DNA of 64,000 nt, taken from an uncultured Bacilli bacterium (GTDB lineage Bacteria; Bacillota_I; Bacilli_A; RF39; UBA660). Position numbers and translations under genes: made by a program. The DNA lies in assembly GCA_947589495.1 (NCBI GenBank), contig CANQAK010000001.1:13017-77016 (forward strand), in the 5' to 3' direction. This document shows positions 3,658 to 57,403 of the stretch, in pieces. The notes under the pieces were generated by a model. The model saw nothing but the letters and a program-made list of their open reading frames with translations. It made no database searches and was not told the DNA's origin. Every line of letters begins with the position of its first letter. Position 1 is the first letter of the stretch.

Positions 3658-4197
3658 TTAAATTTTATACATTTTGGCCTTATTTCTAGTAGCTAAATAA
3701 GCTCCAACAGCAACAACTGCTATAACTCCTAATGCAATATAAGGTAATGTTGCACCAGTTTGTTTATTATCTGCAGCTTGATCTGGAATTGTTGCAGGTT
3801 TAATTGTTGCAGTTTCATTATTTAATGCAACACCAATTTCACATTCTGTTGAACCACTTGCTTTGTATGTGAAAGAAAATAAATCACCTTCACCAACAAC
3901 ACCAAAAGAAGTTAATTGTACAGTCCAAACTCCACTGTTTTCATTTTGTGATTGAACTGTCCATTCAGATTCAGAAGCACTAAAAATACTAGAAATTTCT
4001 GCTCCACCACGTTCAGTTAAAGTTACAGTTAAATTATCTACGGCCTCTGTACCTGTAATTGTATAGGCTACAGTACAAGTTATATTTCCATTTTCATCTT
4101 GATTACTACAATTTGGAACAATTCCTGTTGCGGCTTTCGCACTAAGCGGTAAAAATGCTATTAAAGACATTACCATTAAACCAAATAATTTTTTCAC
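3658..4197 (-). CDS. Small secreted or cell-surface protein with a signal peptide and a C-terminal tripartite anchor ('NKQTG' + hydrophobic stretch + basic tail); candidate sortase substrate
   Basis: N-terminal 'MKKLFGLMVMSLIAFLPLSAKA'. C-terminus '...DNKQTGATLPYIALGVIAVVAVGAYLATRNKAKMYKI'. Confidence 0.55.
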   Translation of the reverse strand: MKKLFGLMVMSLIAFLPLSAKAATGIVPNCSNQDENGNITCTVAYTITGTEAVDNLTVTLTERGGAEISSIFSASESEWTVQSQNENSGVWTVQLTSFGVVGEGDLFSFTYKASGSTECEIGVALNNETATIKPATIPDQAADNKQTGATLPYIALGVIAVVAVGAYLATRNKAKMYKI

Positions 4198-4325: not shown

Positions 4326-5939
4326 ATGATAAAGATTCTTTTTCAAATAAAAGATAACAGATTATATATTCAAAAAAGAAAAAGACTTAATGCTGATCAA
4401 AAAAGTCTTATTAATACTAATGTTATTAGTGAAAATGAATTAGTATTTAGTGATGAATACATAAAACAAAATGTTAAAATAATCCATAATTTTGTTAAAG
4501 AATTAATTAATAATTATAATATTGATACTCTAATAATTAAAGAATTAGAAATAGCTCCTTTAATTTTACATGTGTCAAGTAATATAACTAATTTAAAAAA
4601 TTTATATCTTTTAGAAGAATCAATTATCAACTATAAAGTATGTGAAAAAATAATTAAAACTAATTCTATTAAATATGTTTCTTTATATAATATTCCAACA
4701 TTTTTATTAGAAATGTTAGATAGAGAAAAAATTATTGTAGAATCAAGAAGTGAAATATTATTTTTAAGTAATTTTATGAAAGATAATAATTTAGATAATT
4801 TTTCTTCTCTATATTATAAAACTACTATTTATATTAATCTTCCCTTTTCTAAAGAAGATGAAGAAGATTTTCTATCTTTTATTAATATTAATAAATACTT
4901 AAAAAATATTTATGTTAATAAATTAAATAAAAATGATATTGAAAATATTTTAGAAATACTTTATAAATTAAAACTTAAAAATATTAAAATTTATATAGAA
5001 GAAAATATTAATGATGTTGAATTAATTGAATATTTAAAAAAGATTAACAAAAGAAATGCTAAAATAAATGGAATTCATTTTAAAATTGATTATAGTAAAG
5101 AATATTTAGAAGATAATTTAATGAATCAAATTCATATTAATACTATTAAAGCTTGTATTTTTATTTCTCTTTTCTTAGTAAGTTCTTTAGTACTCTATGT
5201 TTTTTCATCAAATTATATGTCAATGCAAAAAGTTGAAGATATACAAGATGATATAAATAATGCAATTGCTGAAAATAAAAATGAAGAAAATGAAGAAACA
5301 CAAGAAGAAATTATAGAAGAGCCTCCAGTAGAAGTACCAACAGAAGAAGTAAAAGAAGAAAAGGTTGAACCTAAAATGGTTGAAGACTATGCTGCTCTTT
5401 TAGAAATTAATAAAGATACTGTTGGTTGGTTAAAAGTAAATAATACAAATGTTGATTATCCAGTAGTTCAAGCTAGTGATAATGATTATTATTTATCAAG
5501 AAATTATAAAGGTCAAAAAGACAACAGTGGTTGGATTTTTCTGGATTATCGTGCTGATGCTGTTAATTTAAGTCAAAATAATATTATTTTTGGACATAAT
5601 ATGTATTACAGTGGTGTTATGTTTGGAACTCTTTATAAAACTAAATATTCTAATTGGTATACTAATCCTGAAAATCAAATTATAGAATTTAATACTATGT
5701 ATCAAAAACTAAGATGGCAAATTTTTTCTATTTATGTTGTTCCTAATACAAATGATTATTTAATTGCTAATTTTAGTTCTGATGAAAAATTCCAAGAATT
5801 TCTAAATTTAATTACTGAACGTAGTATTTATGGATTTAATACTCCTGTATTTACTACTGATAAAATACTAACATTATCAACTTGTTCTAATAATGGTAAA
5901 AATAGATTAGTTATACATGCTGTTTTATTAAGCGATTAA
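4326..5939 (+). CDS. Class B sortase (SrtB-like) carrying an unusual ~270-aa N-terminal cytoplasmic Leu/Ile-rich repeat domain, a single TM helix and an acidic linker
   Basis: The C-terminal 210 aa carry SrtB hallmarks: 'VGWLKVNNTNVDYPVVQASDNDYYL', 'NIIFGHNMYYSGVMFGTL' (catalytic His) and 'LTLSTC' (catalytic Cys). A TM helix 'IKACIFISLFLVSSLVLYVF' lies near aa 275, so the preceding 270 aa are cytoplasmic. Confidence 0.75.
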   Translation: MIKILFQIKDNRLYIQKRKRLNADQKSLINTNVISENELVFSDEYIKQNVKIIHNFVKELINNYNIDTLIIKELEIAPLILHVSSNITNLKNLYLLEESIINYKVCEKIIKTNSIKYVSLYNIPTFLLEMLDREKIIVESRSEILFLSNFMKDNNLDNFSSLYYKTTIYINLPFSKEDEEDFLSFININKYLKNIYVNKLNKNDIENILEILYKLKLKNIKIYIEENINDVELIEYLKKINKRNAKINGIHFKIDYSKEYLEDNLMNQIHINTIKACIFISLFLVSSLVLYVFSSNYMSMQKVEDIQDDINNAIAENKNEENEETQEEIIEEPPVEVPTEEVKEEKVEPKMVEDYAALLEINKDTVGWLKVNNTNVDYPVVQASDNDYYLSRNYKGQKDNSGWIFLDYRADAVNLSQNNIIFGHNMYYSGVMFGTLYKTKYSNWYTNPENQIIEFNTMYQKLRWQIFSIYVVPNTNDYLIANFSSDEKFQEFLNLITERSIYGFNTPVFTTDKILTLSTCSNNGKNRLVIHAVLLSD

Positions 5940-7027
5940 ATATCGCTTTTTTCAATGTATTTTTCCATTTCTTCTAAATTAAGTTGTAATCTTAAATTAT
6001 TTTGATCTTTTTCTAAAGCTAGTTTAACATTTTCTACTGCTTCATCATAATAACCTAAATTAAAAGAACAAATACTTAATAAATCATATATAAAACTATT
6101 CCAAGCAAATACTTCATTAATATATGTTTTACTTTTAACTTTTATTTTTAAAGCTAATTTTAAATACTTATAAGCTTCAAAATAATTTTCTTCTTCATAA
6201 TAAAGATAAGCAAGTTCTATGTAAGCTTCTCTTAAATATGGTGCCTCTTGAATGGCTTTTAAATACCAATTTTTAGCTTCTTCTTTCTCATTTTTAGCAC
6301 TATAACTTCTAGCAATATAACGCATAGAGGCAGCTCTTTCATCTTTCCAAGTAGCACTTTTTAAATCAAGATGTTTTTTTAATGTTTCAATACATTTATC
6401 CCATTGACAATAATACATATATTCTCTACCTAAATAATGCATATTTCTATCATCTTCTGGACATTCTTTAACACTTAATTCTAAAAGGGGTAAATAACTT
6501 TTTCGAGATTTTGTAATATCAGGATAATGCTCTAATAAAATATTTTTACATAATACTTCTTTTTCTAAACATTTGGGAGTTAAAACTTCATGTACGGGAT
6601 GAGTCCAAGTATATGCTTTATTTTTATGAATTTTATTAATATAAAAAGTAGTTGCAGGATTACCATACTCATCAAAAGACCAATTATATTCATATCTTAA
6701 TCTTGTTACATCATCATTCCAAGTTTTAACTACTTCATCTTTCCATCCTTTTTTAAATATTTCATCTAAATCAGTACATACACATATTTCATAATCATCG
6801 GGAACTAAATTTAAAGATTCATTTCTTGCAACATCAAAACGCCATGGTTTAATTTCTTTTTCATGTACTTCAACTCCTCTTTTTTTTAATTTTTCAACTG
6901 TTTTATCTGTTGAACCTGTATCTAAAACAATAATTTTATCAGCTTCTTGCATAGAATCTACCCATCTATCCACAAACTTCTCTTCATTTTTACTAATTGC
7001 ATAAACACACACTTTATAATTTTTCAA
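5936..7027 (-). CDS. Family-2 glycosyltransferase N-terminal domain fused to C-terminal TPR repeats
   Basis: GT2-like N-terminus 'KVCVYAISKNEEKFVDRWVDSMQEADKIIVLDTGSTDKT'. C-terminal TPR-like Tyr/Ala/Leu periodicity. Lies adjacent to the collagen-like gene. Confidence 0.65.
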   Translation of the reverse strand: MKNYKVCVYAISKNEEKFVDRWVDSMQEADKIIVLDTGSTDKTVEKLKKRGVEVHEKEIKPWRFDVARNESLNLVPDDYEICVCTDLDEIFKKGWKDEVVKTWNDDVTRLRYEYNWSFDEYGNPATTFYINKIHKNKAYTWTHPVHEVLTPKCLEKEVLCKNILLEHYPDITKSRKSYLPLLELSVKECPEDDRNMHYLGREYMYYCQWDKCIETLKKHLDLKSATWKDERAASMRYIARSYSAKNEKEEAKNWYLKAIQEAPYLREAYIELAYLYYEEENYFEAYKYLKLALKIKVKSKTYINEVFAWNSFIYDLLSICSFNLGYYDEAVENVKLALEKDQNNLRLQLNLEEMEKYIEKSDI

Positions 7028-7064
7028 AATATCACCTAAAATATTTTATGCTAATTAAAAAAAA

Positions 7065-7098
7065 TGGTATCAAAATAAAAAAGCCAAAATGGCCTTTT
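7065..7098 (-). terminator. Putative intrinsic terminator downstream of the collagen-like gene
   Basis: Short GC hairpin 'GCCAaaaTGGC' flanked by A and T runs on both strands. Confidence 0.45.
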
Positions 7099-7100
7099 TA

Positions 7101-7853
7101 TTAAGCAACTTGTACTACTGTAAGTCTTGCATCATTAACTGTTAATGTTGCAGTATTGTTTTCTGTAGTAATTGCTAAATCTAAAGTTGCTCCAGCAGGT
7201 AATTCTGCAAATACTGTTCCATTGTAATTTGTAGCAGCAGCATTAGTTACGTTTCCACTTGTCGCAGTTGTATCTATATTTTGATTATTGCTTCTTACAG
7301 CAAAGGTAATATCTGCCGTTTCTGTTGTTGTAACATCACTATTATAACTTATTTGATAAGTTCCTTCTTCATCTACAGTTAAACTATTTGTAGAATAATT
7401 AACATTTTGAGCTGGTAAAGTTTCTCCTAATTGAATTTGATATGGACTAGAATCTTGTGTTAAATTAATACTTTGAGATCCTGTATTATAAAGTCCACCA
7501 AAAGCGGTAAATCCAACTGGTCCTGTTGGCCCTTCAATTCCTTGAGCTCCTGTTGCTCCAGTTGCCCCAGTTGGTCCTGTTGGACCCGTTGGCCCTGTAG
7601 GTCCTGTTAATCCAGTAGGACCTATTGGTCCAGTTGGACCTTGTGGAATAGTTAAATTTAAAATAAAATTAGGTGCTACTCCTGTAATACTTGCGGCAGC
7701 TTGACTGCCTGGAGCACCTGTAGTTACTGTACCAATTGTTAATGTCATATTTCCTGGAACAACATTACTTTGAGCTAAGCAACAACAAGGTGATGGTCTA
7801 TAATTTTTATTAAAATTTTGAATTATACATCTAGCTCTTTCAACGTTATTCAT
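7101..7853 (-). CDS. Collagen-like triple-helix-repeat protein, BclA-like exosporium or spore-surface glycoprotein candidate
   Basis: A central tract of about 25 G-X-Y triplets ([44 protein letters not shown]) lies between an N-terminal domain and a Thr/Asn-rich C-terminal beta-domain. A CATATGTTA motif (sigK-type -10) lies upstream. Confidence 0.75.
7520..7660 (-). repeat. Imperfect 9-bp tandem repeats encoding the GPT collagen triplets
   Basis: Reiterated 'ggtcctgttgg/ggacccgttgg/ggccctgtagg' units are visible in the sequence. Confidence 0.7.
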
Positions 7854-32364: not shown

Positions 32365-35300
32365 TTATTCTTCTACTTTTTCTACTAAAGTATAAACTTT
32401 AATACCATTAACATTTATTTCTTCTTTATCTATATTTTTCTTTTCTATTTTTATAGCTAGTGTTTCTTTCTTTATATAATCTTCATATTTTTCAATAACT
32501 TTTTCAAATTCATCACTATTATAATAAATTATAATTCTATTACTTACATCATAATTAGCTTGTTTACGTAAATTTTGTATTTTAGAAATAAATTCTCTAG
32601 CATGTCCTTCTAATATTAAATCTTCTGATAAATTAGTATTTAAAATAATAAATAAATTATCTAATACCCCAACATTAAAGCCTTCTTTAGAAGCTATTTT
32701 TATTTCATACATATTTTTAGTAATTACTGTATTATCAAAAGATAAATCTTCATTATTTAATTTATTCAAGTCAGCATTTTGTAAAAATGCCTCATAATCT
32801 TTAATTTTTGCTCCAAAAATCTTTCCAACTTCTTTATAATTTGGCTTCAAAGATAAATTCATATATTTAGTTAAATCTTTTTCACTAATAACTTCTTTAA
32901 CATTTAACTCTTCTTTAATTAAAGGAATTAAATTATCTATTTTTTGATATACTTCATCATCAATAATAGCTTCTTTTAATGGAGTTCTTACCTTTATTTT
33001 AGCTTCTTCTCTAACATTTCTACCTAAAGAAATAAGATTTTTAACTAAACTCATTTTTTCTTCTAATTTTTCATCAATTAACTCTTCATTACATTCTGGA
33101 TAAGAAGTTAAATGAACAGATTCTTCATTTGTTAAATTACGATAAATTTCTTCACTTAAAAATGGTGTTATTGGTGCAATTAACTTAGATAAACCTACTA
33201 AAACTTCATAAGTAGTAAGATAAACAGATTTTTTAGAATTATCCAGTTTATTACCCCAGAAACGATTTCTACATCTTCTTATATACCAATTAGATAAATC
33301 TTCTGATACAAAACTTGTTAAATATCTAACAACTTTATTTAAATCATATTCTTCAAATGAATTAGTTACATTTTTAACTAAACTATTATATTTTGATAAT
33401 AACCATTTATCAATTTCTTCTCTATCTTGATAAGGTATATTACATTCATCAATATCAATATTATCAACATTAGCATACATTACAAAGAAATTATAAGTAT
33501 TTTTTAAAGGATTAAAGAATTTTGAATAAACTTCTTTTAAACCATCTAAATCAAATTTTAAAGGTGTCCATACTGGTGAAACATAAGGTAAATAAAATCT
33601 TACTGTATCTGCTCCATACTCTTTCATTGTAGTAAATGGTTCAACAATATTACCTCTACTCTTACTCATCTTTTTACCTTCAGCATCAAGTAATAAATCA
33701 TTTACTAAAACATTTTTAAATGGGCTACAGCCTTTAATAAATGTAGAAATAACCATTAATGTATAGAACCAACCTCTAGTTTGATCAATTCCTTCACAAA
33801 TAAAATCAGCAGGAAATTGTTTTTCAAAAAATTCTTGATTTTCAAATGGATAATGATATTGAGCAAATGGCATTGAACCTGAATCAAACCAACAATCTAA
33901 AACATCAGGAATTCTTTTCATATCTTTACCACATTTAGGACATTTTAAATAAACATTATCAATATAAGGCTTATGTAAATCAAGATTTTCATCTAACTTT
34001 TTAGTAGCCATATTCTTAAGTTCTTCAATTGAACCAACCATATGATTATAACCACATTCACATTTAAAGAATGGAATAGGACTTCCCCAATAACGACTTC
34101 TTGATACATTCCAATCTTTAGCATTAGCTAACCAATTAGCAAATCTTTTTTCTCCAACATAAGCTGGATACCAATTAACATTTTTATTAGCTTCCACCAT
34201 TTTATCTTTAAATTCAGATACTTTAATATAATAACTAGGCATTGAATAATAGATTAATGGAGTATGACATCTCCAACAATGTGGATAATCATGCATTATT
34301 TTTTGACGTTTAAATAATTTATTATTTTCTTTTAAATAATCTACAACTTTCTCATTAACATCAAAAACAAAACTACCTTTCCATAATCCTTCTGTATAAC
34401 ATCCATCTTTTCCAACTGGATTTATGCTAGGTAAATCATATTTTGCTCCTACTAAAGCATCATCTTCACCAAATGATGGAGCAATATGAACAATACCTGT
34501 TCCATCAGTCATTGTTACATAATTATCACAAGTTACATAGAAAGCTTTTTTATCCACTTTAATTTCTGGAATTAATTGTTCATATTCTGTATATTCTAAA
34601 GTTTTACCTTTAAATGTATCTAATATTTTAACATCTTCACCAAATATTGTTGAAACTAATGAAGTAGCTAAAATAAATTTATTTCCTTTTGATTCTACTA
34701 ATGAGTAATCTTCATCTGGATTAACACATAATGCAACATTGGCAATTAAAGTCCAAGGTGTAGTTGTCCAAACTAAAAAGTAGATATCTTCTCCCTTTTT
34801 TTTAAAAGGAACGTATACAGTTATAGCTTGTTCATTTACATATTCTTGAGCAACTTCATGAGATGCAAGACCTGTTCCACAATGTGGACAATATGGTACT
34901 ATTCTAGTACCTTCATAAAATAAATTTTCTTCATAAAATTTCTTTAAAATCCACCATTCAGTTTCAATATATTCATTTTTATAAGTTAAATAAGGATCTT
35001 CTACATTTATAAATTGTCCCATTTTACTTGTTAAATCTGTAAAAGCATTTTCATTTTCTCGAACACTTTTACGACATTCTTCATTAAATTTATCTACTCC
35101 TAAAGCTTCTATTTCTTTTTTAGAAGAAATTCCTAACTTTTTCTCAACATGATTTTCAATTGGAAGACCATGAGTATCCCATCCAACTTTTCTATAAACT
35201 TGGTAACCTTTCATTACTTTATATTTACAAATTGCATCTTTTAAATTTTTTGCTACCATATGATGTAGACCAGGAAATCCATTTGCAAATGCTGGTCCAT

Positions 35301-35439
35301 CATAAAACACGAATGTTTTATTTCCTTCTCTTAATTTTATTTGCTTTTTAGTAATTTCATTAATTCCACCCCAAGAATCAAGAATATCTTTTTCTATTTC
35401 TTCATATTTTTTTTGACTAAGTGCTTTAAAATTTTTCAT
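32365..35439 (-). CDS. ileS: Isoleucyl-tRNA synthetase
   Basis: 1024 aa. HIGH-like 'PFANGFPGLHHMVAK', 'KMSKS' ('KKMSKSRGN') and a C-terminal Zn-binding Cys cluster. Confidence 0.95.
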   Translation of the reverse strand: MKNFKALSQKKYEEIEKDILDSWGGINEITKKQIKLREGNKTFVFYDGPAFANGFPGLHHMVAKNLKDAICKYKVMKGYQVYRKVGWDTHGLPIENHVEKKLGISSKKEIEALGVDKFNEECRKSVRENENAFTDLTSKMGQFINVEDPYLTYKNEYIETEWWILKKFYEENLFYEGTRIVPYCPHCGTGLASHEVAQEYVNEQAITVYVPFKKKGEDIYFLVWTTTPWTLIANVALCVNPDEDYSLVESKGNKFILATSLVSTIFGEDVKILDTFKGKTLEYTEYEQLIPEIKVDKKAFYVTCDNYVTMTDGTGIVHIAPSFGEDDALVGAKYDLPSINPVGKDGCYTEGLWKGSFVFDVNEKVVDYLKENNKLFKRQKIMHDYPHCWRCHTPLIYYSMPSYYIKVSEFKDKMVEANKNVNWYPAYVGEKRFANWLANAKDWNVSRSRYWGSPIPFFKCECGYNHMVGSIEELKNMATKKLDENLDLHKPYIDNVYLKCPKCGKDMKRIPDVLDCWFDSGSMPFAQYHYPFENQEFFEKQFPADFICEGIDQTRGWFYTLMVISTFIKGCSPFKNVLVNDLLLDAEGKKMSKSRGNIVEPFTTMKEYGADTVRFYLPYVSPVWTPLKFDLDGLKEVYSKFFNPLKNTYNFFVMYANVDNIDIDECNIPYQDREEIDKWLLSKYNSLVKNVTNSFEEYDLNKVVRYLTSFVSEDLSNWYIRRCRNRFWGNKLDNSKKSVYLTTYEVLVGLSKLIAPITPFLSEEIYRNLTNEESVHLTSYPECNEELIDEKLEEKMSLVKNLISLGRNVREEAKIKVRTPLKEAIIDDEVYQKIDNLIPLIKEELNVKEVISEKDLTKYMNLSLKPNYKEVGKIFGAKIKDYEAFLQNADLNKLNNEDLSFDNTVITKNMYEIKIASKEGFNVGVLDNLFIILNTNLSEDLILEGHAREFISKIQNLRKQANYDVSNRIIIYYNSDEFEKVIEKYEDYIKKETLAIKIEKKNIDKEEINVNGIKVYTLVEKVEE

Positions 35440-35700
35440 TTTATCTACCTCTTTCTCGTATAAAAAAATTCATAAAATAAAGGACGAATTTTATCCGTGG
35501 TACCACCTTATTTTATGAATTTAATCACCTTATTATGTTAACGCCATCGACGAGTTATTTTACTAATATTTCAAATAACTGACTCCCAAGTGATATAAAT
35601 TAAATATTTTTATTAGTTTCCACCAACCACTAACTCTCTTTTAAAAATAGTTTTAATTTACGTGTCTTGTTCAATGTCTTTAAATTTACAATATTCATTA
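35440..35700 (-). ncRNA. T-box riboswitch leader of ileS
   Basis: The minus strand contains the T-box sequence AATAAGGTGGTACCACGG, which overlaps the 5' arm of a terminator hairpin TTCATAAAATAAGG...CCTTTATTTTATGAA followed by TTTTTTT. Upstream are AGAGAG (AG-box) and Stem-I-like 'TTAGTGGTTGGTGGAAACTAA'. A candidate AUC specifier lies in 'UAUAUCACU'. Confidence 0.7.
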
Positions 35701-40453: not shown

Positions 40454-41140
40454 TTGATGGACATTTTAAGTATTTTAATACCTTATCAAGACTTAAATTA
40501 TAAAAAATTTCATGAAAAAATATGTTCTACTAAATATGAAATAGTAGGTATTAAAATACCTACCCTAAGAAAGTTATCTAAATATTTACTAAAAACATAT
40601 GAAGTTGAAGAAATCTTTAACTCTTTAAATAATAATTATTATGAATGTGTTATGTTACAAGGTTTAATTATTGCGAATTTAAAAGTTGATTATAAAACTA
40701 AGGTAGAAATGATTAATTCATTTCTACCTAAAATAGATAATTGGGCTATTTGTGATATTTTTTGTGGTGAACTTAAATTTATTAAAAATAATCAAAAAGA
40801 ATTTTTAAAATATATTAATAATTGTTTAAAAAAGAAACAAGAATATATTATTCGATTTGGTATAGTTTGTTTAATAAATTATTATATAAATGATAATTAT
40901 ATAGATTATATTTTAGAAAAAATGTTAAGTATTCAAAGTGATTATTACTACGTTAAAATAGCTGTTAGTTGGACTTTATCAGTTTGTGCTACTAAATACT
41001 TTGAAAAAACTTATGAATATTTAAAAGTAAATAAAAATGTTATAGAACCTTGGATATTTAATAAAACAATTCAAAAATGTATAGAATCTTATAGATTAAA
41101 TAAAGATCAAAAAGAATTATTAAAAAAATTAAAAAACTAG
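40454..41140 (+). CDS. Putative DNA alkylation repair enzyme family protein (HEAT-like repeat)
   Basis: 228 aa, all-helical, with a 'KIDNWAICDIFCGELK'-type motif typical of the AlkC/AlkD-like family. Weak call. Confidence 0.4.
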   Translation: MMDILSILIPYQDLNYKKFHEKICSTKYEIVGIKIPTLRKLSKYLLKTYEVEEIFNSLNNNYYECVMLQGLIIANLKVDYKTKVEMINSFLPKIDNWAICDIFCGELKFIKNNQKEFLKYINNCLKKKQEYIIRFGIVCLINYYINDNYIDYILEKMLSIQSDYYYVKIAVSWTLSVCATKYFEKTYEYLKVNKNVIEPWIFNKTIQKCIESYRLNKDQKELLKKLKN

Positions 41141-41155
41141 ATTACTCTAGTTACT

Positions 41156-41270
41156 TTTTCCATTTCCTGATTATATAGCCGGAATCGCCGCTTTGTCCAC
41201 TTCCTGTTTAACATGGCCGGAATCGCCGCTTTTTCCATTTCCTGTTTACATGGCCGGAATCGCCGCTTTT
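41156..41270. repeat. Three tandem copies of a ~38-bp direct repeat with a GC-rich core (CATGGCCGGAATCGCCGCTTT)
   Basis: 'ttttccatttcctgattatatagccggaatcgccgcttt / gtccacttcctgtttaacatggccggaatcgccgcttt / ttccatttcctgtttacatggccggaatcgccgcttt' in an otherwise AT-rich intergenic region. Confidence 0.85.
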
Positions 41271-41368
41271 TCGAACACATAATTACTTATGTAAAATAAG
41301 TATACAGTTTAATAATAAATTTGTCAAATTATTTCTAAATTTTGGTATAATGAAATTGGTGAAAGAAA

Positions 41369-41734
41369 ATGGAATGTTTATTTTGTAAAATTATTAATGG
41401 TGAAATGCCAAGTTATAAATTATATGAAGATGATTTAGTAATGGTTATTATGGATGCTTATCCTAATGTTGATGGACATACTTTAATTATTCCTAAAAAA
41501 CATTATGATACATTAATGGATATCCCTGATGATTTAGTTACTCATATTAATAAAATAGCTAAAAAGTTTATTAAACAAAATATGGAAAAATTAAATGCTA
41601 AAGAATTAAGTGTTGTTGTTAATTATGGAAATAGTCAAAAAATTAAACATTATCATATGCATTTACTTCCTAATTATGGAACAAGAGCAGTTGAAGATGT
41701 TAAAAATGTTTATGAGGTCTTAAAAAATGACTAA
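41369..41734 (+). CDS. HIT-family (histidine triad) nucleotide hydrolase
   Basis: 'HYHMHLLP' histidine triad and 'GHTLIIPKKHY'. Confidence 0.85.
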   Translation: MECLFCKIINGEMPSYKLYEDDLVMVIMDAYPNVDGHTLIIPKKHYDTLMDIPDDLVTHINKIAKKFIKQNMEKLNAKELSVVVNYGNSQKIKHYHMHLLPNYGTRAVEDVKNVYEVLKND

Positions 41735-45446: not shown

Positions 45447-45601
45447 ACAATATTTAATTAAACTAAGATATAATTTCTTAGTTTTTTTATTATTTAAAAA
45501 GAAGATATAAATTAATATATCTTCTGGGTTAAGTTAAGTCTATTTTAACGTCTTCGTTGACGAGTGTTTTTTTATTTGTTTTTGTTTATTTTATAATATT
45601 G

Positions 45602-48109
45602 TTAACTTTCTATATAGAATGGATCATCATATGTTCCTGAACCTTTTAATACTATATCATTCTTTAAATAGAAGACTGGACGAATCGAAAGCTCCACGTT
45701 GAAGTAGTGGCGATTGACATAACCACCAGGATCCACACGCCACGCCTCGAAGCTAGATGACGAGTCAGACTGTCGGCCAGCTCGCGACATGGTCCATTCA
45801 TAATCTGATGATGATCCTCCATTTTTTGATATGTGCATCCAGCCTCCTGTTTTACATGCTTCATATTTGCTTCCATTATAATGACAGTTATCTGATGTTG
45901 ATTGGTAATAATAATCATGTAAATATATTAATCCTATATTAGCTCCAATTTTTCCTGTCCATCTTTTTCCGGTTACTAAATCTTTACTTGATGATGTTTT
46001 ACCATAATATTGTGTATCTGCTTGACCAATTTCTATTTTATATATTTCTTCTGCTGTTTTATTTGCATAATTCCATTCTATATCTCCATACCACCAGTTC
46101 CATTCTTGTATTTTATTTTTTATATTTTCATTTAGTGAACTATAAAACGTTCCATTTAGCGTGTTATATATTTCACTTTTTGGCCATTCAGGGCATCCAC
46201 TTTCATCACATTTATATATGGGAATTGAAGTAGTTTCATCATTTTTTGTATTCCATACATATTTACTTATTCCCTTATTCGTAAATTGTGTTTGTTTTAT
46301 TACCTTTATATTTCCACTCTCTGTGATTCCTATAATCCTGTACATGTTGTCATCATAACCATTAGTTTTTGCATTACTACAACCTGCTTCTTCTACTTTT
46401 TCTAAACATATATAATTGTTTACTTTTTTTCCTTTTAATGTATCTGCTCCTTGATATCTATACATTCCACCAACTAAAGTTTTACTTAATGCAGTACTAT
46501 TATTTGCTTCCTCATTTTTTCTTAAATAATTTTCTTGCTCTGTTGGTATTACTTCGGATAATGTATATGGATCATCTAATGTTCCACTTCCATATAATGT
46601 TATGTTACTCTTTAAATAGAAAACTGGGCGGACTGCATACGAAACGAGCAAGTCGGTTGAGGCGATATTTCCGGTTTCACTCACAGACAGAGCGCTGAAG
46701 TAAGGGCTTGAGTTCGCTTGGCGACCAATACGCGACATGGTCCATTCGCGTGCTTCATTTCCAGACTCTGCTCCTCCGTTATTTCGCATATTCATCCAGC
46801 CTTGGTTTATACAATTTGCATAATCACTATTTTTTTTAGGATGACAACTAGCTTGGTTTGCTTGGTAATAATAATCATGTAAATAGATTAATCCTATATT
46901 AGCTTTATTTTCCATTTGAGTCCATCTTTGATTTGTTACTTCTGCTTTATTACTTGAACTATGTCCATAGTATTTTGTATCCATTTGACCTGTCTCTATT
47001 TGGTATACTTGATCTGCAACTAATTCTTCTACAAAACTATAGTGCATATCACCATACCACCATTTTTGCGGTTCTATTTTATTTTGTATATCTGCATTTA
47101 ATGTACTTAGAAATGAACTTTCTCCTTCATTTAATATTTTATAAACATCACTTTCTGGCCATTCGGGACAACCATCATCACCACATGTTGAATCTTGATA
47201 ATCTGTGTTCCATGCATATGTGCTTGTACCATTATTTATAAATTTTGTTTGTTTTATTAATTTTATACTTCCTTCGGGAGTAATTCCTATAATCCTGTAC
47301 ATATCATCTGATCCTGAAGAACATTTTCCTTCGAAACAGAAATAATTATTTACTTCATCATTTGTTCCTTGATATCTATACATTCCTCCGACTAAGTCAT
47401 CACTTAATGTGTTATTTGTATCATCATCTTGTAATTTTTTTACTAATTTTGCTCCTTTATCTTCTCCACATTTTAAATTTCCCGCACTTATTGTTATATT
47501 TAATTCTTTATTAGCTAAATGATCTTGTTCTGCATCTTTTTTATTAACTAAATATGCATATGCATCTATTTTTGATGAACTATTTCCTGTTACTTTAAAT
47601 GTTATTCCACTATATGTCTTTGTTCCTTCATCCTTAATGGTATATAAATCTAATGTTTCTTCTGGAAAATCATTACTTCCGTCTCCCTTTAAATGTAAAT
47701 ATAAATCTCCTTGTTGTAATGCTGCTCCCATTGAACCTTCTTCATTAGTCATTGTTACTGTTATATCTGCTGTACATTCATATTTATCTTCATTCGTTGC
47801 ATCAGTTATTTCAAATTTAGTTATGGTATGTGTTCCTTCTTCTTCAGTTAACACATAATTCTTTTCATCATCTGCATAATAATTCCTTGCATTATTTGGT
47901 GCCATATCTTCTTCATCTACTATTATTTTTAAATTTGGTGTTGGTACTGAAAGAGTTACTAATCCTGATTCTTCTGTTTGTAGTGTTATTACACTACTAG
48001 TTGAATTATTTATTACTCCCATATTAAAGTAAGCATATGTAGCTCCAATTACCAAGACTATCATTATTGCTACTCCAATTATTAATTTTACTTTTGTTTT
48101 CTTATCCAT
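45602..48109 (-). CDS. N-terminally anchored surface protein made of two ~330-aa tandem modules, each ending in a DUF1566/C-type-lectin-like domain ('...EWTMSR.GRQ...(V/I)RPVFYLK')
   Basis: Repeated blocks 'LVGGMYRYQG...NNY(F/I)C...MYRIIGIT..G.IK.IKQT.F', 'DGCPEWP.S..Y' and 'ANIGLIYLHDYYYQ'. N-terminal TM 'VKLIIGVAIMIVLVIGATYAYF'. Confidence 0.7.
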   Translation of the reverse strand: MDKKTKVKLIIGVAIMIVLVIGATYAYFNMGVINNSTSSVITLQTEESGLVTLSVPTPNLKIIVDEEDMAPNNARNYYADDEKNYVLTEEEGTHTITKFEITDATNEDKYECTADITVTMTNEEGSMGAALQQGDLYLHLKGDGSNDFPEETLDLYTIKDEGTKTYSGITFKVTGNSSSKIDAYAYLVNKKDAEQDHLANKELNITISAGNLKCGEDKGAKLVKKLQDDDTNNTLSDDLVGGMYRYQGTNDEVNNYFCFEGKCSSGSDDMYRIIGITPEGSIKLIKQTKFINNGTSTYAWNTDYQDSTCGDDGCPEWPESDVYKILNEGESSFLSTLNADIQNKIEPQKWWYGDMHYSFVEELVADQVYQIETGQMDTKYYGHSSSNKAEVTNQRWTQMENKANIGLIYLHDYYYQANQASCHPKKNSDYANCINQGWMNMRNNGGAESGNEAREWTMSRIGRQANSSPYFSALSVSETGNIASTDLLVSYAVRPVFYLKSNITLYGSGTLDDPYTLSEVIPTEQENYLRKNEEANNSTALSKTLVGGMYRYQGADTLKGKKVNNYICLEKVEEAGCSNAKTNGYDDNMYRIIGITESGNIKVIKQTQFTNKGISKYVWNTKNDETTSIPIYKCDESGCPEWPKSEIYNTLNGTFYSSLNENIKNKIQEWNWWYGDIEWNYANKTAEEIYKIEIGQADTQYYGKTSSSKDLVTGKRWTGKIGANIGLIYLHDYYYQSTSDNCHYNGSKYEACKTGGWMHISKNGGSSSDYEWTMSRAGRQSDSSSSFEAWRVDPGGYVNRHYFNVELSIRPVFYLKNDIVLKGSGTYDDPFYIES

Positions 48110-48333
48110 ATTACAACTTCCTTTTTTAAATTTGTTTTATATACCGATAGGGTTATATAAAATAATAAATTAGTATTATTATTATGGTTTTTATAAACAC
48201 ATATTATTCTTTTACTATTTATCTGTTGTAATAAATATATCATATTTATCGTATTTGTGTATATACTTTTTTATATTTATTTGACATTTTTAAACACTAA
48301 AAAAGAAAACTATTTCAAGTTTTCTTTTTAGTG

Positions 48334-56337: not shown

Positions 56338-57357
56338 CTATTCATCGCATAAAGAATAGTCTACTTCATTATTATTTAATAAAATATTTTTATTTTCACT
56401 ACAAGATAAAATATTAAATTTTTCTAATTTATATAATTTTTTATTATCTATTTCTCTTATTTCACTATTATTTATTATTTCCTCTAAAGTAATTTTACCA
56501 TCTTTTAAAGCATAAGATAATTCGTATTTATCTATCTTATAATCTAAATAAATATTTTCAATACATTTAGTATAAAAATTATCAGTGTATTCTTTTATGG
56601 AGTTATCACAATTATTACTCAAGATTACTTGAAAATCATACTTATCATATAAATCATTTTTTTCAATAATACTACTAGTTAGAGAAAGTTCCATCGAATC
56701 TTTATTAAAATTTTCAAGTAATCCTACTACTGTTATATAATCATATATCTTATAATTAGAAATATTTATATTTTTTAAATTAACAGTTAGTTTACTAGTT
56801 TCATTAAATTTAACATAACCATTTATAGCATTATCTTGTATTGTATACTCTCTTAATTCAATACTTGTATTACCATTTATTTTACTTATCTTCCCTGTTA
56901 TTTTAATAAAATCATTTTTATATTCATGAAAACTTTCTTCTGGTTCATTTAAAAGTTTATTAATATCAATATTTTCTAACATAGTTGGTGAACATGCAAA
57001 ATTCTTTTCATAATCATTATCAAATATATATTCATTTTGACATTTAAATACTCGATAAAAAATACTATTATATATTGATACATCATCATTTATTTTATTT
57101 TCTAAAACATAGATAGGACTTAATTTTAATGTATAAGTCTTAATATAATCTATACTATAAGTTAATAAAACTAAAATTATTGGTAAATATATAAGTAAAA
57201 AAATATTAGTTTTACTTTTAGTTGCTAAAAATATGTCAATTAAAAGAATACCAAGTGCTACAGAAATTAATTTATAAACACTATAAAAATTTAAGAAAAA
57301 TGGTCCTATTATTAAAATTAAACCAATTATTAATAAAATTATTCTTTTCTTTTCCAT
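56338..57357 (-). CDS. Membrane protein with an N-terminal TM cluster and an extracytoplasmic domain; hypothetical
   Basis: N-terminal ~75 aa are hydrophobic. The remainder is Asn/Ile/Lys-rich. Confidence 0.5.
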   Translation of the reverse strand: MEKKRIILLIIGLILIIGPFFLNFYSVYKLISVALGILLIDIFLATKSKTNIFLLIYLPIILVLLTYSIDYIKTYTLKLSPIYVLENKINDDVSIYNSIFYRVFKCQNEYIFDNDYEKNFACSPTMLENIDINKLLNEPEESFHEYKNDFIKITGKISKINGNTSIELREYTIQDNAINGYVKFNETSKLTVNLKNINISNYKIYDYITVVGLLENFNKDSMELSLTSSIIEKNDLYDKYDFQVILSNNCDNSIKEYTDNFYTKCIENIYLDYKIDKYELSYALKDGKITLEEIINNSEIREIDNKKLYKLEKFNILSCSENKNILLNNNEVDYSLCDE

Positions 57358-57403
57358 ATTTTTAACCTCACATATATTATACTCTAAAAATGAATCTAAA
57401 AAA

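Follow-up and report, generated by a model that had tools for sequence, protein, structure and literature searches.

Why does a bacterial gene embedded in DNA with a GC content of 0.250 carry two short islands, each closing one of two homologous modules, in which more than half of the nucleotides are G or C? The question arises from a stretch of 64,000 nt of an uncultured Bacilli bacterium (RF39; UBA660), assembly GCA_947589495.1, contig CANQAK010000001.1, positions 13,017-77,016 of the forward strand. This stretch, called the window below, belongs to a metagenome-assembled genome (MAG), in which its contig measures 85.8 kb; all negative results given for the window are confined to its 64 kb. 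The gene, an open reading frame (ORF) at 45602..48109 on the minus strand, encodes according to its translation a membrane-anchored protein of 835 aa. The protein is composed of an N-terminal signal-anchor, an N-terminal domain of ~200 aa and two homologous DUF6273/C-type-lectin-like modules of ~300 aa each.

In a diversity-generating retroelement (DGR), a template repeat (TR) is transcribed, and the RNA is converted to cDNA by a reverse transcriptase (RT) that misreads adenines only. This cDNA takes the place of the variable region (VR), which lies at the end of a C-type-lectin-like domain. We infer, with a probability of roughly 0.85-0.9, that both islands are VRs written by a DGR. The grounds for this are the homology of the islands to proven VRs, their adenine and codon signatures, the hypervariability of the corresponding stretches in homologous proteins and the complete cassettes found in related genomes.

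GC-rich islands at the ends of two lectin-like modules

Module 1 spans aa ~227-515 (approximate limits 46565..47431, minus strand) and module 2 aa ~531-835 (approximate limits 45605..46519, minus strand). The two are 51% identical in alignment, and the motifs GGMYRYQG, MYRIIGIT, CPEWP and RPVFYL are conserved in both. The internal duplication described in the original prediction, an earlier note made from the letters of this stretch, is thereby borne out, and both peptides that it quoted are present in the translation. The first island, VR1 (TCGCG...CGCCCAG; 46624..46735, minus strand), and the second, VR2 (TCGCG...CGTCCAG; 45676..45787, minus strand), are GC-rich, A-poor stretches of ~112 nt. 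The alignment places each of them at the end of its module, as had been stated.

Measured in 120-nt windows, GC content across the 64 kb has a mean of 0.250 and a standard deviation (sd) of 0.062. The islands peak at 0.567 (at 45676) and 0.55 (at 46624), ~5 sd above the mean; elsewhere a GC of 0.55 is attained only by a collagen-like GXY repeat at 7463-7686. The coding strand of the gene has 42% A and 12% C; in the islands A drops to 19-23% and C rises to 24-28%, while T is unchanged.

Amino-acid composition (Gly, Ala, Arg, Ser, Trp, Pro) or chance might produce such islands, and the segment is indeed somewhat enriched in residues with GC-rich codons, its expected GC being 0.34-0.36 against 0.25 for the window. 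This origin was refuted by resampling, in which the amino acids were kept and their codons redrawn from the 42 other ORFs of the window (18,577 codons; 20,000 resamples). For VR1 a GC of 0.339 +/- 0.015 was expected and 0.530 observed, with a GC content at third codon positions (GC3) of 0.06 expected and 0.54 observed. The corresponding values for VR2 are 0.357 +/- 0.016 against 0.556 for GC, and 0.09 against 0.56 for GC3. The observed GC thus lies 12-13 sd above expectation (z = 12.4 for VR1 and 12.8 for VR2) and was reached in 0/20,000 resamples; for GC3, z is 12.5 in VR1 and VR2 alike. The target gene outside the islands is just slightly above its resampling expectation. We therefore give composition or chance a negligible probability; the GC excursion of both islands is real. 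The codons named in the original prediction as locally rare are so: within their families TCG has a share of 0.00, CGA 0.04, GCG 0.04, CGC 0.01 and GGC 0.04 in the window. Its further statement that the islands are homologous in protein and strongly diverged in nucleotides agrees with the 45% nucleotide identity of VR1 and VR2 over 85 nt.

Selection on mRNA or DNA secondary structure, one of the explanations offered earlier, or selection on translation rate through a rare-codon pause at the domain end, could also maintain unusual codons here. Rare-codon clusters that end a domain are at times interpreted as pauses for folding, and the islands do lie at module ends. However, folding compared with dinucleotide shuffles gave z = -1.13, +0.90, -0.11 and +0.18 over both strands of both islands, and the islands and their homologs have no common nucleotide-level structure. 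Moreover, neither structure nor a pause predicts the NNY codons and the adenine-specific pattern described below, and we consider selection of this kind extremely improbable.

Two other GC-rich features of the window stand apart from the islands. The peak of 0.55 at 7463-7686, in an ORF on the minus strand (7101-7853), is due to the GGN and CCN codons of its collagen-like Gly-X-Y repeat, and similar collagen-like repeats lie near family members in relatives, e.g. at 3807-4194 of locus L039. The window's only other non-coding GC peak consists of three head-to-tail GC-rich repeats of ~37 nt at 41143-41299, with the consensus ...TTTCCATTTCCTGTTTACATGGCCGGAATCGCCGC..., between ORFs 40454-41140 and 41369-41734 (both plus strand). 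These repeats had no Rfam match (best E 0.74) and were not found in any fetched relative locus.

Template repeats and variable regions in related genomes

Of the 169 homologs of the target protein, nearly all lack Pfam hits or have faint PF19789 hits only. In an alignment of the 12 closest homologs, each module includes a sole hypervariable stretch, which extends from 'EWTMSR.GR' to 'VRPVFYL' between highly conserved flanks and encloses a fixed scaffold of F, AW, V, G, V and L. The window islands align column-for-column with the VRs of loci L048, L086, L088 and L091. In most related loci GC rises to 0.5-0.67 in an island at the module's 3' end: in genomes of ~25-30% GC, 66/99 VR-like stretches have a GC of at least 0.45, and the median is 0.49. 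The homologs thus combine the same composition with hypervariability, so that the condition under which the original prediction would fail, homologs of like composition that do not vary, does not apply.

These homologs also bear on another idea, import of the islands from a higher-GC donor or silent cassettes through recombination or gene conversion, with no reverse transcription involved. Composition and codon usage of the islands are foreign to the host, as this idea would have it, and DGRs themselves are often atypical in GC (PMC5758913). Yet no cassette or repeat of either island, and no other similar sequence, was found in the window. The excursion is limited to ~112 nt, lies at equivalent positions in the two modules and recurs there in the 66 family members out of 99, across many MAGs. 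Recombination would not predict the adenine-specific mismatches to a known TR given below. The higher-GC donor or silent cassette of the original prediction thus has very little probability, and its suggestion of a remnant diversification mechanism, with the accompanying proposal to look for a DGR, is the one that the evidence supports.

The loci compared here come from MAGs of uncultured gut Bacilli with ~25-30% GC. Locus L048 includes a complete DGR, in which the target is a single-module family member with its VR at 1376-1487 and the TR at 1693-1804. VR and TR differ at 0/76 non-adenine sites, and 22/36 TR adenines are altered. The TR is followed by a MutS_I-like gene, bAvd and an RT (RVT_1, E 4e-19). 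Two further cognate VR/TR pairs were similarly clean, with non-adenine mismatches at 0/57 sites in L088 and 2/55 in L086. The TR of the closest available relative is linked to the RT P0141, which comes from the same samples as those closest homologs of the window protein whose DNA was retrievable, and corresponds to positions 1-85 of L084. Its 3' 85 nt read AAC ACT AAC TTC AAT GCG TGG AAT GTG AAT TCG AGT GGC AAT GTC AAC AAC AAC AAC TTG AAC AAT ACG AAT GCG GTT CGC CCA G. The VR of P0014, a protein 57% identical to the window protein, differs from it at 2/55 non-adenine and 14/30 adenine sites.

Loci L091, L092 and L093 (VR end 4218; TR end ~4754) have an identical RT (P0134) and identical TRs, and three mutually different VRs. 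Between L091 and L093 the 1,647 nt before and the 1,062 nt after the VR are 100% identical, as is the block from the MutS-like gene to the RT (5288-7125), and the VR itself (112 nt) is 82% identical. The flanks of L092 are identical to those of L091 and L093 downstream and carry an indel upstream. The VR differences among these loci show strain-level DGR activity in the clade. As an additional observation, these VRs have 5-10 non-adenine mismatches to their own TR, clustered opposite the TR codons ATA TCA.

The cassette is arranged in the same order in L083, L084, L088 and L091-L093: target, TR, a MutS_I-like gene (128-129 aa), Avd (118 aa), RT and a conserved ORF of 95-96 aa. L088 includes two tandem TR copies (478-640 and 803-965) that differ at several positions. 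Its adjacent VR (~170-284) has 0/57 non-adenine mismatches to the second copy and 5/59 to the first, which may serve another target. A HIGH_NTase1 gene follows the cassette in L083, L088, L091 and L093, and miaA, a transglutaminase gene and rpsT are also present in L088 and L091; in L092 other genes, with HTH and Viral_Rep hits, occupy the HIGH_NTase1 site. Since the position is mostly fixed, vertical inheritance rather than carriage by phages is suggested for the cassettes of this clade.

The TRs of the clade have a GC content of ~50%. They use AAC or AAT at the variable sites and adenine-free codons (GCG, TGG, GTG, GTC, GGC, CGC/CGG, TCG, TTG) at the scaffold sites. This offers an explanation for the composition of the islands. 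A TR that is itself GC-rich would be copied into cDNA, and its AAC/AAT-templated variable residues would become NNC/NNT after adenine mutagenesis; the adenine-free scaffold codons would escape. A VR overwritten in this manner would take on the composition of the TR, not that of the host, with a further loss of adenine. In a host of 25% GC that prefers codons ending in A or T, a stretch copied from a TR would hence stand out as an A-poor, C/G-rich island of seemingly rare codons.

The window VRs display the same signatures. Compared with the L084 TR, which belongs to another species and is the closest available relative (85 nt; 30 adenine and 55 other sites), VR1 differs at 19/30 adenine sites and 14/55 others (p = 7e-4, Fisher) and VR2 at 19/30 and 12/55 (p = 2e-4, Fisher). 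The replaced adenines became T, G and C about equally often. The two TRs of L088 and that of L091 fit the window VRs worse than the L084 TR, with 19-24 non-adenine mismatches. Codons opposite the AAY codons of this TR are NNY in 12/13 cases in VR1 and 10/13 in VR2, 22/26 together. In a set of seven VRs of equal length, from the window gene and its close homologs P0003, P0006 and P0009, the entropy at codon positions 1, 2 and 3 is 1.21, 1.02 and 0.84 in the VR core and 1.04, 0.89 and 1.02 in the flanks. The variable VR codons are NNY, and positions 1 and 2 vary more than position 3, a drop at position 3 that the flanks do not have.

Several observations weigh against a DGR origin. The adenine bias of the window VRs is strong, yet a cognate pair would have fewer non-adenine mismatches: 22-25% of the non-adenine sites also differ from the L084 TR, itself the TR of another species. 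Neither a cognate TR nor an RT was found in the window, which covers 64 kb of the 85.8 kb contig. In addition, the match of the protein to the Pfam family PF19789 (aa 638-690) is below threshold, with E 0.15 and 12.3 bits against a cut-off of 23.5 bits.

Orphaned or still diversified: the state of the probable variable regions

Provided that the islands are of DGR origin, we lean towards viewing them as orphans or fossils: the DGR has been lost, or the two copies are no longer efficient targets. The search for a TR in the window, by repeat search, blastn and an adenine-tolerant scan of two strands, found none, the best match having at least 21 non-adenine mismatches per 100 nt. No open-frame YxDD motif of an RT was seen in the window except a chance one inside the target gene. 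The RT, Avd, MutS-like (MSL) protein and 95-96-aa ORF product (orf96) of L048 and L091 had no tblastn match there, and the HIGH_NTase1/miaA/rpsT neighbourhood of the cassettes was not found in it either. Among the RT homologs in the database, none sits on a contig of the same length (85,832 nt).

The VRs themselves have also diverged. VR1 and VR2 differ at 22/55 of the non-adenine sites of the TR, which rules out that both were copied recently from a single TR. In VR1 the scaffold Trp codon is mutated: GCT CTG stands against GCG TGG in every TR. All four TRs and the cassette-adjacent VRs that were compared share one 3' element, GGTTCGCCCAG, which has two substitutions in each window VR (AGTCCGCCCAG in VR1, GATTCGTCCAG in VR2).

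By sliding-window folding, GC-rich hairpins of -19 to -27 kcal/mol were found downstream of the VRs of L048, L086, L023 and L017 only. No GC-rich hairpin follows the window VRs: in the 260 nt scanned downstream of VR2, the best 44-nt fold reaches -10.6 kcal/mol (AGAAGATATA..TATATCTTCT). VR1 is followed by coding sequence and VR2 by an AT-rich terminator, the hairpin with a T-run at 45496..45525 (minus strand) that is likely the intrinsic terminator 3' of the gene. This hairpin occupies the place of the GC-rich inverted repeat of cassette-adjacent targets in relatives. Such a repeat is required for efficient homing in the Bordetella phage DGR (PMC5758913).

Decay can be followed in relatives as well. 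L017 retains a decayed cassette at 5140-5300, a GC-rich hairpin with the first ~35 nt of a TR that is followed by an unrelated gene, and its RT is gone. L023 (11600-12205) has kept the hairpin and the MutS_I-like gene, with TR and RT absent. Despite this decay, the VRs of both loci still have 59-69% GC. Within one MAG, non-adenine mismatches to its TR increase from 0 in L048 to 5 in L009, 13 in L054 and about 30 in L066. Across the family GC drops as TR mismatches increase (Spearman rho = -0.58), a correlation to which the GC-rich TRs themselves contribute in part. One MAG alone yielded at least 14 family loci, and two-module genes number 16.

The same DGR origin would also allow one or both VRs to be still diversified in trans by a DGR outside the window, possibly with two TRs. 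Remote targets that lie over 100 kb away from their RT are on record (PMC5758913), and multiple VRs per ORF have been reported (PMC6642488). The GC3 of the window VRs, 0.54-0.56, is still near the level of the TR (~0.68 for the L084 TR, by hand count). The following also count against the fossil reading. The ratio of C to T at third positions in the window VRs is also still near that of the TR, and the clade does include a cassette with two TRs (L088). In the two-module homolog P0009 the 3' 49 nt of the VRs agree fully or almost fully with the TR at non-adenine sites, with 0/31 and 1/31 mismatches and 10-11/18 adenine sites altered, and no GC-rich hairpin is present; these tracts look like recent partial conversions.

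Against diversification in trans stand the 64 kb in which TR, RT, Avd and MutS-like gene are missing, and the 22/55 differences, with which a single TR is unable to serve both VRs. The substitutions in the otherwise invariant GGTTCGCCCAG of both VRs and in the GCG TGG scaffold codons of VR1, and the missing GC-rich inverted repeat after either VR, point in the same direction. Diversification in trans is in our view rather unlikely, and continued activity, given a DGR origin, less likely than the orphan or fossil state. Together with the decayed cassettes and the mismatch gradient of the relatives, these features argue for the orphan or fossil state without proving it. Strain variants of the window gene were sought as well and none was found: its cluster is single-member, a scan of genome contigs gave only relatives of at most 38% identity (best segment), and a scan of metagenomes gave one relative of 33%.

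Tentatively, the orphan state may be part of a wider pattern, in which lectin tips written by DGRs are repeatedly 'frozen' by module and gene duplication in small AT-rich gut Bacilli. If this is true, such genomes would hold a germline-like repertoire of many paralogs with fixed specificity, of which one or a few copies are actively diversified, and the window gene would be a two-tip member of it. GC-rich islands would then be datable fossils: the further they have decayed towards the composition of the host, the longer ago the last retrohoming.

The target gene is chromosomal, with prsA-like and rpoC genes on either side and no phage context in the window. The hydrophobic signal-anchor of its product (aa ~6-28, KVKLIIGVAIMIVLVIGATYAYF), read from the translation, is encoded at 48026..48094 on the minus strand and predicts a location at the cell surface. 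A second ORF, at 56338-57357 on the minus strand (339 aa), starts with a sequence 75% identical to the start of the target gene over 55 nt (57306-57360 vs 48058-48112), which suggests that it encodes another surface protein with a related N-terminal signal-anchor. A T-box leader (35477-35683, minus strand; 125.9 bits, E 1.6e-27) is located upstream of an ORF of 1024 aa (32365-35439) and fits a Bacillota-type host.

Module fold and comparison with known systems

The original prediction had assigned the modules to a DUF1566/C-type-lectin-like fold. The lectin-like part of this assignment holds, and the description of a surface lectin-like protein is probably right as well. The DUF1566 label fits less well than DUF6273. 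An AlphaFold2 model of module 2 (aa 527-835) had a mean pLDDT of 88.8 and a pTM of 0.90. In a Foldseek search of BFVD, 7/15 top hits were DUF6273 proteins (E 9.6e-11 to 1e-4), with TM values of about 0.4-0.46 (0.45 for the best hit). Phage DUF1566 proteins ranked below the best of these, at E 3.5e-3 and weaker, and the C-terminal domain of Lcl (8q4e) was a weak match (E 0.25 over 48 columns). The fold of the module therefore seems closer to DUF6273 than to DUF1566; the two folds are related, and DUF1566 is not the best label. A whole-protein scan gave no DUF1566 Pfam hit, and module 2 and 35 relatives searched individually gave no Pfam domain in the module at E <= 0.01; precomputed PF19789 hits exist on some homologs. 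A profile search of PDB sequences returned no match to the module, and C-type lectin matches in a Foldseek search of the PDB were weak. The best match among solved structures of the module 2 model (45605-46531) was the IgA peptidase of Thomasclavelia ramosa (9qa6; E 8.7e-6, TM 0.47 on the query), which hints that a domain of this gut-bacterial protease may have the fold of the module. DUF6273 has been described as a C-type-lectin-like domain that bears a DGR VR in gut phages (PMC10743442).

Much of what the locus presents is already known, namely the mechanism, the fold class, remote targets, ORFs with several VRs and the MSL-type cassette, and our understanding of how DGRs work is unchanged. 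What the locus does provide is a signature for AT-rich genomes: a ~110-nt A-poor, GC3-rich island that ends a lectin-like domain marks a DGR VR on contigs that have no retroelement. Such orphan VRs would be overlooked by DGR finders that rely on TR/VR pairs. The window gene and the decayed cassettes of its relatives are also material on the birth, duplication and abandonment of DGR targets.

As in Mtd of the Bordetella phage, TvpA of Treponema denticola and LdtA of Legionella, the VRs of the window gene occupy the last ~35-40 codons of a C-type-lectin-like domain. They likewise place AAY-templated (NNY) variable sites in a conserved scaffold, and the VR has a GC-rich 3' boundary. The relatives of the gene also resemble these systems in having cassettes of target, TR, accessory gene and RT, in which TR and VR differ at adenines only. 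Unlike in these systems, TR, RT and accessory genes are missing from the window, neither VR is followed by a GC-rich inverted repeat, and the ORF has two tandem VR-bearing modules. To the solved structures there is no sequence similarity, and lectin matches in the PDB are weak. The best structural matches of the module are to the DUF6273 (PF19789) DGR targets of gut phages ('tentaclins' and the Faecalibacterium prophage targets; PMC10743442, PMC11792537). The window gene differs from them in being chromosomal, membrane-anchored and two-moduled, with a Pfam score below threshold.

DGRs with MSL and avd form Architecture D of Wu et al. 2018, a class that includes the Legionella DGR and in which non-adjacent and remote targets occur (PMC5758913). 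The order target, TR, MutS_I-like gene, Avd and RT in the relatives is that of these MSL-type DGRs. The clade cassettes differ by the conserved 95-96-aa ORF after the RT and, in one case, by two tandem TRs, and the window by having none of the components. Several VRs in one target ORF have been reported for 31/271 multi-VR DGRs (PMC6642488), and the window ORF is similar in carrying two VR-type stretches. It is unlike them in that each VR closes its own duplicated module and that the two differ at 22/55 non-adenine sites. Two DGR-type tips in one gene, with no retroelement within 64 kb, are unusual. Mildly new is the family itself, a DUF6273-like group of uncultured gut Bacilli that is chromosomal, membrane-anchored and two-moduled and extends the range of DGR targets, with many paralogs that bear VR-like islands at varied stages of decay.

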